This document shows positions 10,268-55,215 of a stretch of DNA of 64,000 nt, one piece after another. Position 1 is the first letter of the stretch. Every line of letters begins with the position of its first letter. The stretch comes from a phage. A program made the translations under genes and the position numbers. The notes beneath the pieces were generated by a model that did not search any database, was not told the DNA's origin, and saw only the letters and a program-made list of their open reading frames with translations. The stretch is taken from assembly GCA_037574385.1 (NCBI GenBank), contig GCA_037574385.1_4529.1. One strand, written 5' to 3'.

Positions 10268-10687
10268 TTATGCGAAAGCAGCCGGGCTATATTTTTTAAT
10301 TTGGAATTCAGGAACTACCATGAACTGACCAGCGAAAACGATGTTATAAAGCTTAACACCATCTTCTACCCAACGGTCGCTAATAAATCCGGCGATTTGC
10401 TTAGTTTTCCATGGCGTTCCATCGGTTGCCGCAGCAATAGTGAATTCGTGGTCTTTTTCAACAGAAACTGATCTGCATAGTCCCCATTTGAACGCTTTTT
10501 CTTCTGGTTCAATGAATTGGCTTGAGACGTAGCCAATGTTGCCATCAGCATCACGAACTTTAACTTGATGTGGACTAAAGAGTCCACAACTTACAGAAAG
10601 AACTTCAACCAACTTCCCAGCAACTTTAGAGCGAGAAGCAACAGATACATATACGTAATCACCAATAGAGAGATTTGCAATATTCAT
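10268..10687 (-). CDS. hypothetical protein, paralog family member (139 aa)
   Basis: C-terminal FISDRWVEDGVKLYNIVFAGQF shared with the two upstream genes; AAGGAA SD. Confidence 0.55.
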   Translation of the reverse strand: MNIANLSIGDYVYVSVASRSKVAGKLVEVLSVSCGLFSPHQVKVRDADGNIGYVSSQFIEPEEKAFKWGLCRSVSVEKDHEFTIAAATDGTPWKTKQIAGFISDRWVEDGVKLYNIVFAGQFMVVPEFQIKKYSPAAFA

Positions 10688-10696
10688 AATAATTCC

Positions 10697-11182
10697 TTAA
10701 GCTTTACGAGGAGACACATAACGAGTGATTTCGGATTCTTTAACAACTCTGAAGTCACCTAAGAATACGATATTGTATAACTTTTCACCATCTTCAACCC
10801 ATTGGTCACTAATGAAGCCACACATAGTATCAGTTTTGCTTGGATAACCGTATTCATCGATGAAGTCAAATTCTTTATCAGTCTGGAATTCAACGCCTTT
10901 GCAAAGGGCCCATTTGAACTGTACATTATGCTCTGTGGATTCAACTTTTTCTCTTGAAGCAAAAGCACTACTCACAGGCGTTTCCAAGAACTTTGCACGA
11001 ACATAAGCAAATTTGGTTTCCTGTGTCCCAAAACTAGGAATAATACGAACCTTTACCTCAGAATCTTCATCTTTAACGCCTTCTTTAAGTTGAATACTTA
11101 CAACTTCGACCAATTTTCCTGCGGCTTTAGAACGAGATTTGTTAGATACGCGAACGATTTCACCAATAATACCAAGATTCAT
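10697..11182 (-). CDS. hypothetical protein, paralog family member (161 aa)
   Basis: Track ORF trimmed to ATG (MNLGIIGE...); shares SRSKAAGKLVEV and FISDQWVEDGEKLYNIVF with 10268-10687. Confidence 0.55.
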   Translation of the reverse strand: MNLGIIGEIVRVSNKSRSKAAGKLVEVVSIQLKEGVKDEDSEVKVRIIPSFGTQETKFAYVRAKFLETPVSSAFASREKVESTEHNVQFKWALCKGVEFQTDKEFDFIDEYGYPSKTDTMCGFISDQWVEDGEKLYNIVFLGDFRVVKESEITRYVSPRKA

Positions 11183-11212
11183 AATTTCTCTCTCTTTGTT
11201 TAAATTGAATTC

Positions 11213-11241
11213 ATTATACTCCATCCATCCTTGGATGTACA
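11213..11241 (-). promoter_or_regulatory. early promoter (TGTACA-N17-TATAAT), CCAAGGATGG-spacer family
   Basis: Minus strand TGTACATCCAAGGATGGATGGAGTATAAT. Confidence 0.5.
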
Positions 11242-11244
11242 ACA

Positions 11245-11739
11245 TTAATTAAGGATATTAACCACAGCACTACGTGGAACTACACTAAAATCACCTGCAT
11301 GAACAACGTTCAGAAGTTCAACACCGTCTTCAATCCACTGGTCAGTTACCCATCCATTTACTGGACCTGCGAAAGGACGTCGAATTGAAACATATTTACA
11401 CAGCAAATCAGTAGGCTCAATAGGCTTAATCAGAGTACCGTACATACAAGCGATATCCATATCAATACAGATGTCTTTAACGGGTTCTACTTCTTCAATC
11501 AACAGTTCAAAGTCTGTGCTTGGAAGGGCGGTAGTGGAAATTGTACCATATGAATTTTTAATTTCTAAGAATAACCAAGGGCCTTCAGCTTGTTTGATGA
11601 AGTTAACAATAGTGAAACTATTGCCTTGAGTGGCACCTAAAATTTCACAAAACTTTTCGTAAGCTCGCACTGAAGCACTGTACCAGTTGATTTGTTTTTC
11701 GTCTTTCAGGATGTAAGTAGCCGTAGTATTGATATTCAT
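11245..11739 (-). CDS. hypothetical protein, paralog family member (164 aa)
   Basis: C-terminal WVTDQWIEDGVELLNVVHAGDF related to the two downstream genes; early promoter 11771-11799. Confidence 0.55.
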   Translation of the reverse strand: MNINTTATYILKDEKQINWYSASVRAYEKFCEILGATQGNSFTIVNFIKQAEGPWLFLEIKNSYGTISTTALPSTDFELLIEEVEPVKDICIDMDIACMYGTLIKPIEPTDLLCKYVSIRRPFAGPVNGWVTDQWIEDGVELLNVVHAGDFSVVPRSAVVNILN

Positions 11740-11770: not shown

Positions 11771-11799
11771 ATTATACTCCAACCATCCTTGGTTGTAAA
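11771..11799 (-). promoter_or_regulatory. early promoter (GTTTACA-N17-TATAAT), CCAAGGATGG-spacer family
   Basis: Minus strand GTTTACAACCAAGGATGGTTGGAGTATAAT; identical core at 52583-52611 and 53601-53629. Confidence 0.55.
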
Positions 11800-51299: not shown

Positions 51300-51604
51300 T
51301 ATAATGTTCTCTCAAATTTGTGGAAGCATTTACGGCATTTCAATTTCAGGTTATCAGTGGTCCAGTTAACCAATTGAACCTGAATAGTTCCACATTCCGG
51401 ACACGGATGTTTTGCTGCCGATTTGGCAGCATTTTCACGTCGTTCAACCATTTTCATTATTTCGTTCCATGCCGGAGGAACGAACTCTTCTTTACCATGA
51501 ATTTTATCTCGCTGAACAAATTCAATCTTTGAACTATCGTCAATAAACTTAACTAAGCTGTGATTAGTGTTCATATCAATATCCTCTAAAAGACGTAGTT
51601 TCAT
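51299..51604 (-). CDS. zinc-finger protein (101 aa)
   Basis: CPECG...CRKC zinc-ribbon pattern. Confidence 0.5.
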   Translation of the reverse strand: MKLRLLEDIDMNTNHSLVKFIDDSSKIEFVQRDKIHGKEEFVPPAWNEIMKMVERRENAAKSAAKHPCPECGTIQVQLVNWTTDNLKLKCRKCFHKFERTL

Positions 51605-52554
51605 TATAACACCTCAATGGCATTTCGTAAACCATCCGCTTTCGCATTCAGAGCTTTTAACGATTTAGTTTGTTCTTTAATCTGGGCTTCGACTTCTTTC
51701 AGACGAGATTTGAGATATTCACGTTCTTCTCTTAAGTTATCAACTTTTTCTGCTTTAGGCTCTTTAATAGGCTTAGGCTTATACTCGTTAGGGTTCTTCA
51801 GTTTAATTTTAATTCGAGAACTGAATAACATTGAACCGTTATCTTCGGTTTCGTCGAACATTTCAACAACATCCATAGTCTGTAACATCATGCGAAGTTT
51901 ATAAGACAGAGAACGAACGGTTTTATTGTGCTTCTTAATTTCTTCAGCTTTCATGGTACCGAGATTACGTGAGTAGTAATAAGGAACCTGGATATCAATT
52001 GATAACGACGCGGTGCCATTACCAGTTGGTTTGAATACTGCAGTAACCCAATCTTTAACATGAACTTTATTTGTACGATCATCGCCGCCTGTGAATAATT
52101 TACATGAATGTTTAAAAAGCATATTCACTTGGTTATTGAATTCACAAGCAAATTTATCAGCAAATTTAGTTTCAGGAATGGTAGATAACCAATCAGCCAA
52201 ATGAGTCTTTTTAACATCATTAACAATAGTGAATTCAACCAAATCGGTTTTAGATGTCACAGATTTAATAAAGCTCGGCTTCATAAAGTTTTTAATGTTA
52301 TCGCGAGCTACAGTAGAAGATAATAAACGAGAACGTTTGAACCATTGAAGCAGTGTCCCTAATGAATGAGAATACGCATTCTGAGTATCTTTACAGATAT
52401 GATTTTCTTGGCCTGTGTATGTACCAAAATCGCGAAGAATACCACTTACTACATCTCGGTGTGGAACATCAAATCCTAGTGCACCAGTAGCGCGCTGAGC
52501 ATGAACGTTAGCGATAAGACCGGCAAAGTATTCAATGTAATGTGAACGTGTCAT
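51604..52554 (-). CDS. hypothetical protein with C-terminal coiled coil (316 aa)
   Basis: Early promoter 52583-52611; C-terminal heptad-rich segment. Confidence 0.55.
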   Translation of the reverse strand: MTRSHYIEYFAGLIANVHAQRATGALGFDVPHRDVVSGILRDFGTYTGQENHICKDTQNAYSHSLGTLLQWFKRSRLLSSTVARDNIKNFMKPSFIKSVTSKTDLVEFTIVNDVKKTHLADWLSTIPETKFADKFACEFNNQVNMLFKHSCKLFTGGDDRTNKVHVKDWVTAVFKPTGNGTASLSIDIQVPYYYSRNLGTMKAEEIKKHNKTVRSLSYKLRMMLQTMDVVEMFDETEDNGSMLFSSRIKIKLKNPNEYKPKPIKEPKAEKVDNLREEREYLKSRLKEVEAQIKEQTKSLKALNAKADGLRNAIEVL

Positions 52555-52582
52555 AATATTTTCCTCTCGTTAAGATAGATTC

Positions 52583-52611
52583 ATTATACTCCAACCATCC
52601 TTGGTTGTAAA
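52583..52611 (-). promoter_or_regulatory. early promoter (GTTTACA-N17-TATAAT), CCAAGGATGG-spacer family
   Basis: Minus strand GTTTACAACCAAGGATGGTTGGAGTATAAT. Confidence 0.55.
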
Positions 52612-52616
52612 CTGAT

Positions 52617-53573
52617 TTATGATTTTAATGCATTCATTGCGTTAAAAAGTTTAGAGTACTGCAACTGGAGATTGGTCACCACCTGTTGAGCATCACGAAG
52701 CTTAGCTTGTGCCTTATCAAGTTCAACAGACAGTTGGTCTACAGTAGCCTTGATTTGATTGTAATGATAATCTTCAGCCGGAAGAAGGTCATTAGAAACA
52801 TTTAGTTTTGCTGCCGACAGTTTGCACACATTTGGCAAACCTTTAAACATACCAGATTGTGCTGGAGAATATGCGCCTAGAACCTCTGCATTACCGACTG
52901 GTGTTGATGTAATATTGCCTTCGAACGTTGCATTTTCCTTTTTAAGATTTTTATAATATTCAGAGTCTTTGTGCCACCATGGTGCAGGAACCTTTTTACC
53001 AATAGATACACGAGCCTGGATAGCGATATGGCCCTTATTCTTGATAGGGTCGATAATATTAAGCTCACGAGAATAAATTGCTTTAATCTGGTGGATATTA
53101 TCACCTAAAACTTCCAACGCTTGGTGGAATACACGAGCAACGTTATCATTCTTAGGTTTATACGTAAGAGTGAACTCGTTCTCACTGATAACCATGGTTT
53201 CTAACTTATCGTAAGTATATTTCAAATGCTTCATGTTAATTGCTTGAGGACGAATACGAGAAGCAATGGCCATCAGATTGTTAAGGTTATTTCTGAACTG
53301 TTTAGCAAAATATTGTCCATAACCGCCAATACAAAAATTACGAAGTTTCTGTTTGGCCAGTAAACGACTGAACTCACCGTTTTTAATGAACTCTTTAACG
53401 GGTGTGTTAGTAACACATTCAAATTGAGTAAACTTACGAGAAGTAATCCCATAATATGAACAGATTTCCTCAATCTCTTCAGGAGTCTTTACAGGCATAC
53501 GGATAGGATTAGGTCCTGGAGTATATGCGTTCGAGGTAAATTCTTTGATAAGTTCTCTACGTGTAATAGCCAT
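52617..53573 (-). CDS. hypothetical protein with C-terminal coiled coil (318 aa)
   Basis: Track ORF trimmed to ATG (MAITRREL...) with GAGGAA SD; early promoter 53601-53629. Confidence 0.55.
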   Translation of the reverse strand: MAITRRELIKEFTSNAYTPGPNPIRMPVKTPEEIEEICSYYGITSRKFTQFECVTNTPVKEFIKNGEFSRLLAKQKLRNFCIGGYGQYFAKQFRNNLNNLMAIASRIRPQAINMKHLKYTYDKLETMVISENEFTLTYKPKNDNVARVFHQALEVLGDNIHQIKAIYSRELNIIDPIKNKGHIAIQARVSIGKKVPAPWWHKDSEYYKNLKKENATFEGNITSTPVGNAEVLGAYSPAQSGMFKGLPNVCKLSAAKLNVSNDLLPAEDYHYNQIKATVDQLSVELDKAQAKLRDAQQVVTNLQLQYSKLFNAMNALKS

Positions 53574-53600
53574 TTTATATTCCTCATGTTGAAAAAAATT

Positions 53601-53629
53601 ATTATACTCCAACCATCCTTGGTTGTACA
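53601..53629 (-). promoter_or_regulatory. early promoter (TGTACA-N17-TATAAT), CCAAGGATGG-spacer family
   Basis: Minus strand TGTACAACCAAGGATGGTTGGAGTATAAT. Confidence 0.55.
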
Positions 53630-54625
53630 TCATTCCTTAAGAAGTTTTACTACCTGAATAAGATTAGCTCGTTCTGTTTTATTTTTACCGTTCAGTCCGG
53701 CCAATCGCGAGATTTCATCGTCAGTTTGTTGAATAGTTACATTAAGTTCATTAATCAAAGCTTCAAAGTATTTGATTTGCTCAGCATGTTTTGATTCAAA
53801 TTTCTGAACCGGAATAACGTCTTGGTTCAGTTCATCAATAAGGTCTTTAAGAGCATCTTCTTGGTTGATATCATATTCAACTTCTTTTATTTCTTCAACG
53901 AGCTCGTCTTTATATCTAACGTCTTTTAGTCCTGGTGCTGGTCCTGAAATCTCTTCTTTAAGAGTACAAACATATCCAATACGGTATCCAGTTCCGTCTC
54001 GCTTGATATCAACTTCGTCGATAAATCCACAATGTTTAAGTCCAGAGCCGATTATGTCAAAATATCCTTGACGTCGTCCTTCAAACGTTACACGAACTAC
54101 TAAGACAGTTTTGCCACCAACCTTTTGAAGCTCACATTTATAAAAGTCTGTTGAACCTGAATAACGTGGATGAGTTTTAAAGTTCATCTGACGATCTAAG
54201 CCCATTTGTAAACGTGCTGTTACGGCCATAAAACGTGTTTGGTTCTCGTTAAGATGAGCAACGATCCATTTCAAAGGCATTTTACACTGTTCACGTCCGA
54301 ACAAATCAGTACGTCCTAGATTACGCAGGATGTTGTTAGAGTTAATCATCGACAGAACGTTAAGTTTATTCAGCGCGCTGAAGATTCCATCAGCCATTGA
54401 TTTTCCATAACCTTTACACGCTTTAATAAGTGCTCGCGGCAGATTAGCATAGATTTCGGACGGCATATGAAAATCAAATTTACTAGTCAGTAATTGATGA
54501 ACTTGGATAGCAATTTGCTCATAATTAAGTGCTCTGCGATCGTTATGGTCTTTAAACCACACTTTAATCTGTGAAGCACATAAACCGTTAATTTCATGTT
54601 TTACCGCATCAGATGTAATGCTCAT
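53630..54625 (-). CDS. hypothetical protein with C-terminal coiled coil (331 aa)
   Basis: GAGGAAATAG SD; promoter-like element 54661-54689. Confidence 0.55.
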   Translation of the reverse strand: MSITSDAVKHEINGLCASQIKVWFKDHNDRRALNYEQIAIQVHQLLTSKFDFHMPSEIYANLPRALIKACKGYGKSMADGIFSALNKLNVLSMINSNNILRNLGRTDLFGREQCKMPLKWIVAHLNENQTRFMAVTARLQMGLDRQMNFKTHPRYSGSTDFYKCELQKVGGKTVLVVRVTFEGRRQGYFDIIGSGLKHCGFIDEVDIKRDGTGYRIGYVCTLKEEISGPAPGLKDVRYKDELVEEIKEVEYDINQEDALKDLIDELNQDVIPVQKFESKHAEQIKYFEALINELNVTIQQTDDEISRLAGLNGKNKTERANLIQVVKLLKE

Positions 54626-54687
54626 AACTATTTCCTCAGATTGAATTGGAACTCAAAACCATTATAACCCGTCCTTGGGTAAAGCGT

Positions 54688-55215
54688 TTATGCGTGAACC
54701 GTCTTTAAACGTTCTTCAAATTTCCGAAGAGTACTAATACGTTCTGATTTCTGTTTTGTGTAGTTTGCAATACGTTCTGAAGTGAGAGCGTATCGTTCGT
54801 TTACTGTTTCTTTCATGAAGTCAGGGATTTCACGAGAAGCTTTAATTTCATCAAACTTATCGATTACTGCCTGGTCTTCAGCGATTAAATTTTCGTACAT
54901 CTCGATATCTTTCTTGATAAACTCGATATCTTCCTGGGTTACTTTGGATAAACGAGATGCTTTATCCTTTTTGTACTGCTCGTTAGTTTCACGAGACCAG
55001 AATAATGTACGTTTTTTATTAGTGTTTTTGTAGACTTCCACAATTCCAACCGAATCGATGATAACAATCCAATTCCAGCGAGATTTGAAAATCTGACCTC
55101 CGTCCACGGTAATCTCGTTACCATAAGCAACGTCATTAAAGAACTTGCTTTGTGCTTCAGATTTAAATTTACCGTCGTTATAATTTACCAGGTTGAAAAT
55201 ATCTTTAGCGTTCAT
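54688..55215 (-). CDS. hypothetical protein (175 aa)
   Basis: GGAGG SD; early promoter 55243-55270. Confidence 0.5.
   Translation of the reverse strand: MNAKDIFNLVNYNDGKFKSEAQSKFFNDVAYGNEITVDGGQIFKSRWNWIVIIDSVGIVEVYKNTNKKRTLFWSRETNEQYKKDKASRLSKVTQEDIEFIKKDIEMYENLIAEDQAVIDKFDEIKASREIPDFMKETVNERYALTSERIANYTKQKSERISTLRKFEERLKTVHA

Follow-up and report, generated by a model that had tools for sequence, protein, structure and literature searches.

T-even phages are the main model system and are used in phage therapy, and the genes of their hyperplastic regions are mostly without known function. The subject here is a set of three consecutive genes of this kind, called g1, g2 and g3, which lie between positions 51604 and 54625 of a phage DNA of 64,000 nucleotides (GenBank assembly GCA_037574385.1, contig GCA_037574385.1_4529.1; the whole stretch is referred to as the window). 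A preliminary description of the sequence had presented them as genes of roughly 320 residues, each with an early promoter of its own, an N-terminal domain unlike those of the others and a C-terminal coiled coil, which might be a diversified family.

Two described systems are close to this locus. A T4 clone with genome deletions no longer plates on E. coli ECOR17, plating is restored when the host is deleted for dsr1, the gene of a SIR2-domain defence protein of this strain, and the early gene nrdC.5 supplied on a plasmid restores plating of the T4 deletion mutant on MG1655 with dsr1 (Srikant, Guegler and Laub 2022, PMC9391042). Our literature search found no later paper on NrdC.5 and none on NrdC.3, NrdC.4 or NrdC.6, and nowhere in the literature searched are the latter three described as one superfamily with NrdC.5. 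The other system is that of the PeSL (promoter-early stem-loop) cassettes, which have been proposed to shuffle modules in T4-type hyperplastic regions, and in which, as published, the stem-loop is found just upstream of the promoter and has a terminator function (Arbiol et al. 2010, PMC2839356; Comeau et al. 2014, PMC4122927).

The genomes of Mosigvirus (RB69-like T-even phages) match the window at 96-97% identity over the region, all of whose genes are on the minus strand. The array is located in the hyperplastic stretch from nrdC to nrdC.11, where endonuclease VII and NrdC border it at one end and the NrdC.8-like and NrdC.10-like genes at the other, and is transcribed in the order g3, g2, g1:

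53630..54625, minus strand: g3, NrdC.6-like gene of 331 aa, the first transcribed of the array (open reading frame, ORF; phrog_2257, PF26899)
52617..53573, minus strand: g2, NrdC.5-like gene of 318 aa, beginning MAITRR (Pfam DUF7235 / PF23882, phrog_2351)
51604..52554, minus strand: g1, NrdC.3 orthologue of 316 aa (PF26897, phrog_1435)

The adjacency and the similar length of the genes (316, 318 and 331 aa) are as first described, and the three are long-catalogued hypothetical ORFs of T-even phages, not a new kind of system. The protein g2 resembles T4 NrdC.5 in its size, in its position in the nrdC.x region, in its pre-replicative expression and in its C-terminal ending (KLFNAMNALKS, against KLNNALNALN in T4), whereas g1 and g3 are outside DUF7235 and related to it at the superfamily level only. 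With respect to the other T4 genes, g1 is a clear orthologue of NrdC.3 and g3 a diverged homologue of NrdC.6; unlike T4, Mosigvirus has no NrdC.4.

The explanation that we prefer, with somewhat more confidence than doubt when taken as a whole, is that of a diverged paralogue array with a counter-defence role, remodelled through its promoter cassettes. The three genes would be a tandem array of very diverged paralogues from a superfamily comprising NrdC.3, NrdC.4, NrdC.5 and NrdC.6, whose members would share the following layout: (i) an N-terminal motif, followed by a helical domain of ~150 aa with two conserved motifs; (ii) a beta-hairpin/helix/beta-hairpin module containing [IM]D.V, followed by a proline-containing linker; (iii) a heptad-repeat helix of ~50 aa that closes with L..[AV][ILMV]..L[KN]. 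Transcribed before replication from promoters of their own, two of the early sigma70 type and one of the MotA middle type, they would provide accessory counter-defence or host-range factors, in which each globular part could bind and neutralise a different host target and the conserved tail could oligomerise the protein. The array would be remodelled by homologous recombination between the promoter cassettes, with g2 as the unit that is present or absent. The value of the analysis resides in the superfamily link to the anti-Dsr1 gene and in the clean polymorphism of g2.

At the level of single families the assignments are direct. The protein g1 is 56% identical to T4 NrdC.3 (E 7e-121), and phrog_1435 is matched alike by g1, T4 NrdC.3 and T4 NrdC.4. 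The match of g2 to DUF7235 covers its full length (391.8 bits with a cutoff of 30, E 3.1e-117), and since the Pfam search gave no match to this family in g1 or g3, membership corresponds to g2 only; phrog_2351 is common to g2 and T4 NrdC.5, which are 24% identical over 304 aa (E 3.9e-9) and are not connected by database-scale tblastn. In the case of g3, phrog_2257 is matched with E 3.6e-127, PF26899 is a precomputed family on its homologues, and identity to T4 NrdC.6 is 30% (E 1.9e-18). Apart from DUF7235 in g2, no informative domain was found for the three proteins in Pfam, NCBIfam or PADLOC, and sequence searches of the Protein Data Bank (PDB) gave no relative. The label "thioredoxin" that NrdC.3-, NrdC.5-, NrdC.6- and NrdC.8-like genes carry in many GenBank genomes appears to derive from the names nrdC.x alone; g1, g2 and g3 have no thioredoxin match in Pfam or NCBIfam. 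As regards the start of g2, its longest ORF (52617-53633, 338 aa) overlaps the stop codon of g3, and the ATG at 53633 was rejected because it precedes the -10 box of the gene itself (53606-53601); the ATG at 53573, which has a GAGGAA Shine-Dalgarno sequence, gives 318 aa, in agreement with the 310-319 aa of annotated orthologues.

The relationship between the families was examined with profiles. The family alignments F3, F4, F5 and F6, for NrdC.3, NrdC.4, NrdC.5 and NrdC.6 respectively, drew their orthologues from Tequatrovirus, Mosigvirus, Gaprivervirus (SP18, RZ) and Dhakavirus (Bp7). The initial shallow alignments linked only NrdC.3 and NrdC.4 in hhalign, and further links emerged only once the Gaprivervirus and Dhakavirus orthologues had been added: over the full length, F3 matches F4 with E 2.6e-11 (probability 97%), F4 matches F5 with E 8.5e-6 (probability 83%, 156 columns), and F3 matches F5 with E 8.5e-5 over 246 columns, that is, nearly the whole length, while the merged F3+F4+F5 profile (F345) matches F6 collinearly over 211 columns (E 9.2e-6). 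Since coiled coils can inflate profile scores, the tails were cut and the comparison was repeated, with the result that F3-F4 stands at 4e-12, F4-F5 at 1.2e-5 and F3-F5 at 8e-3; in the controls, reversed templates, which preserve composition and heptad periodicity, gave E of at least 0.23, and the best of 25 column shuffles gave 0.019-0.056. The bridge between the families is T4 nrdC.4, whose product also matches g1 directly (E 6e-5). Because the matches hold without the tails, by way of NrdC.4 and with clean controls, g1 and g2 can with good confidence be taken as homologous over their whole length. The statement that the N-terminal domains differ is therefore true only for pairwise BLAST, and the diversified family is upheld firmly for g1 and g2, through the profiles, and moderately for g3, through the merged full-length profile, with support from the shared motifs, the common order of secondary-structure elements and two BFVD neighbours that the g1 and g3 models have in common. 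In other words, similarity beyond a generic coiled coil was found between g1 and g2, and probably extends to g3.

An alignment made with MAFFT of 18 sequences from all four families gives the same picture in terms of motifs. At the N-terminus all four families have (I/M)TR..[YL]I..F; the helical domain contains [FL]S..[LIV].A...[LI][RK]N[FL] and F..N......A.[RK][LI]...R; [IM]D.V is found in the beta module, and the C-terminal ending is L..[AV][ILMV]..L[KN]. The invariant positions, in g3 numbering, are T4, I12, G74, R145, D203, G217, L259, L322 and L329. When 157 ORFs from seven loci were ranked by hmmsearch with the N-domain-only F345 profile, gene 080 of Klebsiella phage Mineola (Mineola_080) came first, at 4.4e-9, and five NrdC.6 proteins with a weak E of 0.02-0.17 were placed right behind the true members, above every decoy. 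With the NrdC.3 profile, an exhaustive HMMER search through 1.84 billion representative proteins found no relative beyond the five that it returned, four of them sequences or fragments that look like the NrdC.3 family and one, of 336 aa, apparently of NrdC.4 type (E 4.9e-6).

The C-terminal coiled coil claimed for each gene was confirmed at the level of heptad scoring. The tails were scored with a home-made, crude heptad scan, not a calibrated predictor, over the 68 ORFs of 100 aa or more on the minus strand, among which g1, g2 and g3 rank 1, 3 and 5; by our own arithmetic, three named ORFs would all fall in the top five by chance with a probability of ~2e-4. The tails are these:

51607..51765, minus strand: C-terminal heptad helix of g1, residues 264-316, ending GLRNAIEVL (heptad scan; AlphaFold2 helix 275-315)
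52620..52778, minus strand: C-terminal heptad helix of g2, residues 266-318, ending KLFNAMNALKS (heptad scan)
53633..53794, minus strand: C-terminal helical tail of g3, residues 278-331, ending NLIQVVKLLKE (heptad scan; AlphaFold2 helices)

By the yardstick of at least 4-5 uninterrupted heptads, hydrophobic at a and d, in a predicted helix, the three tails qualify as coiled coils: the heptads are unbroken over residues 264-316 in g1, 266-318 in g2 and 278-311 in g3; in the tail of g3 they are followed by a break at GLNGKNK and then by a terminal helix, and its AlphaFold2 model has C-terminal helices at 281-298, 302-312 and 316-330. The family phrog_26858 matches the tail of g2 (E 7.7e-5) and that of T4 NrdC.5, and T4 NrdC.4 ends in RLEQALQLIK, alongside the NrdC.5 ending already given.

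The models predicted by AlphaFold2 for g1 (from its own family alignment) and g3 (from the superfamily alignment) present their elements in the same order, with 5-7 N-terminal helices, then a beta-hairpin, a helix, a second beta-hairpin, a linker of low confidence and the C-terminal helix or helices; the second beta-hairpin in g3 has a pLDDT of ~80. When the models were compared with BFVD by Foldseek, each found its own family first and then proteins of 318-370 aa, which include those of the T4-like phages Serratia PS2 and CBH8, Enterobacter IME523 and Klebsiella Mineola; E5EYP0 and A0A1Z1LY96, the latter from Serratia phage CBH8, are among the top matches of both models. Mineola_080 is reached from the g3 model with E 8.2e-5, and this protein of 326 aa, compared as a single sequence with F345 in hhalign, gives E 3.7e-7 over 228 columns; the neighbouring Mineola gene 081, used as a control, gave no profile match.

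Several results weigh against a common origin of the three genes, above all in relation to g3. Pairwise BLASTP among g1, g2 and g3 detects no similarity; in hhalign F6 has no significant link to any single family (E 0.05-0.13); without the tail, the match between F345 and F6 weakens to E 2.8e-3; and g3 of the window is outside the top 26 matches of the N-domain F345 profile among the 157 ORFs. As for the structures, both models are of low confidence (pLDDT 54 and pTM 0.38 for g1, pLDDT 59 and pTM 0.46 for g3), so that no fold is assigned; the TM-scores of the BFVD matches are only 0.2-0.4; and the two models do not agree in secondary structure entirely independently, because the g3 alignment already contained the other families. 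It could then be supposed that these are unrelated accessory genes of similar size in which only the tails are alike, the coiled coils having been acquired independently or by tail exchange. The lack of BLAST similarity would agree with this, as would the three different PHROGs and Pfam families, the fact that the link of g3 rests largely on the tail, and also phrog_26858, which covers the body of NrdC.4 and only the tails of NrdC.5 and g2, and could mean tail exchange. However, when only the N-domains are compared, NrdC.3 matches NrdC.4 (4e-12) and NrdC.4 matches NrdC.5 (1.2e-5) while the controls are clean, the motifs follow the same order both at the very N-terminus and within the helical domain, the elements of secondary structure also share their order, and the genes occupy the same chromosomal slot across five genera, all of which makes such a supposition quite improbable.

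A narrower form of the same doubt, which we judge unlikely, though the least so among the alternatives, would be that g1 and g2 are one family (NrdC.3/4/5) and that g3 is separate, sharing with them only a general layout and the coiled-coil tail. This would explain that F6 is not significant against any single family, that the h6N profile reaches no other family, and that the N-domain value of 2.8e-3 is no more than a modest improvement on the 0.019 reached by the best among 25 shuffles. Against it, the merged full-length match has E 9.2e-6 where the reversed control, in which heptad periodicity is kept, has 0.33; the families can be aligned at motifs 1 and 2 and at ID.V; the five NrdC.6 proteins are placed above all decoys; and Mineola_080 connects the two sides, being matched by the g3 model in BFVD (8.2e-5) and matching F345 in turn (3.7e-7). 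The inclusion of g3 in the NrdC.3/4/5/6 superfamily thus seems to us likely.

The promoters of the array, read on the same strand, are as follows:

52583..52611, minus strand: early-type promoter cassette of g1, TTTACA-N17-TATAAT (sequence scan, 11/12 consensus positions)
53601..53629, minus strand: early-type promoter cassette of g2, TGTACA-N17-TATAAT (sequence scan, 10/12 consensus positions)
54661..54686, minus strand: middle-type (MotA-box) promoter of g3, taaaCGCTTTA + 13 nt + TATAAT (sequence match)

Of the GTTTAC/TGTACA-TATAAT early promoter that had been attributed to each gene, those of g1 and g2 stand, with N17 spacers, and that of g3 is replaced by the MotA-box middle type; at g3 an early -35/-10 promoter was not found, TTTACC being only 11 nt from TATAAT. 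The g3 promoter begins immediately 3' of the stop codon of the nrdC.8-like gene, and its 13-nt spacer, CCCAAGGACGGGT, is a short hairpin-like palindrome. According to the rule for T4 middle promoters, the MotA box (a/t)(a/t)(a/t)TGCTTtA precedes a good -10 box by 12 +/- 1 bp (PMC2988021), and the box upstream of g3, with one mismatch, fits this rule by sequence match only. The annotation of phage SA79RD places a middle promoter at the orthologous site, and a MotA-type layout like that of g3 is also found upstream of T4 nrdC.7 and of nrdC.6 in SP18, Bp7 and RZ. A generic promoter scan found 29 sites where 29.4 were expected, that is, no overall enrichment; the weight of the promoter evidence is in the position of the sites and in the repeated cassette, not in the scan count.

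This repeated cassette is what delimits g2. The -35 box of its cassette overlaps the stop codon of g3, and the spacer contains the inverted repeat CAACCA-AGGA-TGGTTG. An identical 25-mer, CAACCAAGGATGGTTGGAGTATAAT, present in 4 copies in the window against 0 expected, is common to the g1 and g2 promoters, and therefore g2 is flanked by a direct repeat. In phage AV118, g2 is absent and a single hybrid cassette, which takes its -35 box from the g2 promoter and its leader from g1, joins g3 to g1. A probe of 301 nt across this g3-g1 junction, compared with 156 Mosigvirus records, was contiguous in 21 of them (AV109, AV114 and AV118 included), which corresponds to the absence of g2, and matched the remaining records partially, as is expected when g2 interrupts the junction; these figures agree with the 133 records that encode g2. 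An example of a close relative that carries g2 is AV117. The presence or absence of g2 is thus bounded exactly by shared promoter cassettes, and its gain or loss is proposed to occur by homologous recombination between these near-identical sequences. The polymorphism of g2 in 156 Mosigvirus genomes, with its breakpoint in the 25-nt promoter repeat, is a clean example of gene exchange, and it can be compared with host-range data.

The likeness to PeSL is found in the flanking of variable genes by near-identical cassettes, each with an early promoter, a stem-loop and a Shine-Dalgarno leader, and in the indel junction of g2, which falls exactly within the cassette and in a hyperplastic region (AV118 and 20 other records); likewise, the MotA-box version of the cassette is comparable with the PmSL elements of the PeSL papers. 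The cassette is nevertheless not filed as PeSL, since its inverted repeat, NNCCA-AGGA-TGGNN, is inside the spacer that separates the -10 box from the -35 box or, in the middle type, from the MotA box, unlike the published stem-loop, which is upstream of the -35 box, and inspection of the sequence upstream of the early promoters of the array found no stem-loop.

The distribution in related phages, which the preliminary description had proposed as a check, shows members of the family in the same slot in five genera, with a composition that varies by genus. Between nrdC.8 and nrdC.2 there are 3-4 genes in Tequatrovirus (C.6/C.5/C.4/C.3), Mosigvirus (C.6/C.5/C.3), and Gaprivervirus and Dhakavirus (both C.6/C.5/C.4), while in Mineola (Jiaodavirus) the slot has a single member, gene 080, directly upstream of an nrdC.2-like gene. 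NrdC.6-like genes such as g3 are found in 742 phage records and NrdC.3-like genes such as g1 in 654; the homologues of g2 found in the 133 records are from Mosigvirus only, and a locus scan of IMG/VR gave 7 close loci only. Identity between T4 and the window declines from 83% in NrdC.8 to 56% in NrdC.3, 30% in NrdC.6 and 24% in NrdC.5, and for NrdC.10 the identity of T4 to two Mosigvirus phages closely related to the window is ~77%. Broken members are frequent. T4 nrdC.6 (NC_000866, 8067-8894) encodes 275 aa, ends in IFLFNNMMMKFSDYLD and has no C-terminal tail motif, while NrdC.6 in other Tequatroviruses (L006-L009) has 295 aa and ends in the coiled-coil motif KLIKIVDLLKS, so that the gene of laboratory T4 looks frameshifted at its 3' end. 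The nrdC.4 gene of Tequatrovirus L006 (6910-7942) and the NrdC.5-like gene of SP18 (L011 6038-6942) are each split into two ORFs, which would mean recurrent pseudogenisation of these accessory genes. In the T2 record PV958097.1, the match to nrdC.4 is in two pieces across two annotated ORFs.

The counter-defence role is proposed because T4 nrdC.5 has been published as overcoming Dsr1, and the evolutionary pattern fits that of arms-race genes, given the fast divergence, the composition that varies by genus and the frequently broken members. On the other side, the literature searched gives no function for NrdC.3, NrdC.4 or NrdC.6, and anti-Dsr1 activity of g2 is not to be assumed, since it has only 24% identity to T4 NrdC.5; for a counter-defence role of g2 we would consider the chances about even, and lower for g1 and g3. 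The proteins could instead be host-takeover or nucleic-acid-binding factors that act on transcription, RNA or DNA, with the rescue by NrdC.5 on Dsr1 hosts as an indirect effect; g1, g2 and most of their relatives are basic (pI 9.1-9.5), they are expressed before replication, and the published evidence is of genetic rescue only, not of binding (PMC9391042, eLife). However, no nucleic-acid-binding or enzymatic domain was found in Pfam, NCBIfam, PADLOC or the PDB sequence searches, and the genes are dispensable, polymorphic and evolve far faster than their neighbours, as is typical of arms-race genes, so that this possibility appears improbable.

If the counter-defence reading is accepted, a comparison can be made with DSAD1, a Bacillus phage inhibitor of the SIR2 NADase DSR2. 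The likeness would be one of proposed logic only, namely that a phage protein prevents the activation of a SIR2-type effector by binding to it; the target (DSR2) is a different one, and no homology hit was obtained in the PDB sequence searches. A bolder version, which we regard as doubtful, is that NrdC.3-6 are a modular immune-evasion family of T-even and related phages in which the fast-evolving globular domain of each paralogue is directed to a different host defence sensor, the tails form homo- or hetero-oligomers, and cassette recombination swaps the specificities. If this were true, the co-expressed paralogues would be a multi-specific anti-defence complex joined via the strictly conserved helix end L..A[ILM]..LK, and g1, g3 and T4 NrdC.3, NrdC.4 and NrdC.6 would be undiscovered inhibitors of other defence systems. 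In any case, three adjacent orphan families (four in T4) become linked to the sole member with a published counter-defence phenotype, which makes them anti-defence candidates, and the domain layout defined here is open to truncation testing.

The spacer hairpin has a wider presence in the window, all on the minus strand, at 11213-11237, 11771-11795, 52583-52607 and 53601-53625, and also at 54669-54678. Its core is CCAAGGAYGG and its stem varies through compensatory changes: in the window CAACCA/TGGTTG is found three times and CATCCA/TGGATG once; in T4 the stem is AGCCA/TGGCT upstream of nrdC.3 and CCACA/TGTGG upstream of nrdC.4; and TACCA/TGGTA corresponds to the MotA-type promoters of T4 nrdC.7 and of nrdC.6 in SP18, Bp7 and RZ. 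In the early-type copies the hairpin is followed by GGAG, a possible site for RegB cleavage of read-through RNA.

A second tandem array of paralogues is found at 10268-11739 of the window (minus strand), whose genes, three in number, encode 139, 161 and 164 aa. Two of the proteins are 44% identical, and all three share the C-terminal motif GF[IV][ST]D.W[IV]EDG..L.N[IV]V..G.F.VV. The cassette that flanks g2 is also found ahead of each of the upstream two genes, and the array is downstream of a putative dexA-like ORF of 225 aa. The NrdC.8-like neighbour of the first array (54688-55215, minus strand, 175 aa, 83% identical to T4) is heptad-rich at residues 93-124 and 146-175, and has no similarity to the three-gene family.

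At the other end of the first array there is one further site:

51603..51631, minus strand: promoter-like site, the fourth, within the 3' end of g1: TTTACG-N17-TATAAT, its -10 box preceded by TG (sequence reading)

This site would serve the downstream nrdC.2-like gene, probably from an internal ATG preceded by GAGGA. In this stretch (51574-51631, minus strand) the -10 box of the site overlaps the annotated ATG of that gene (51604), and therefore transcripts from the site could only use the internal ATG, ~30 nt downstream; the nrdC.2-like gene may thus have two translation starts, depending on the transcript.

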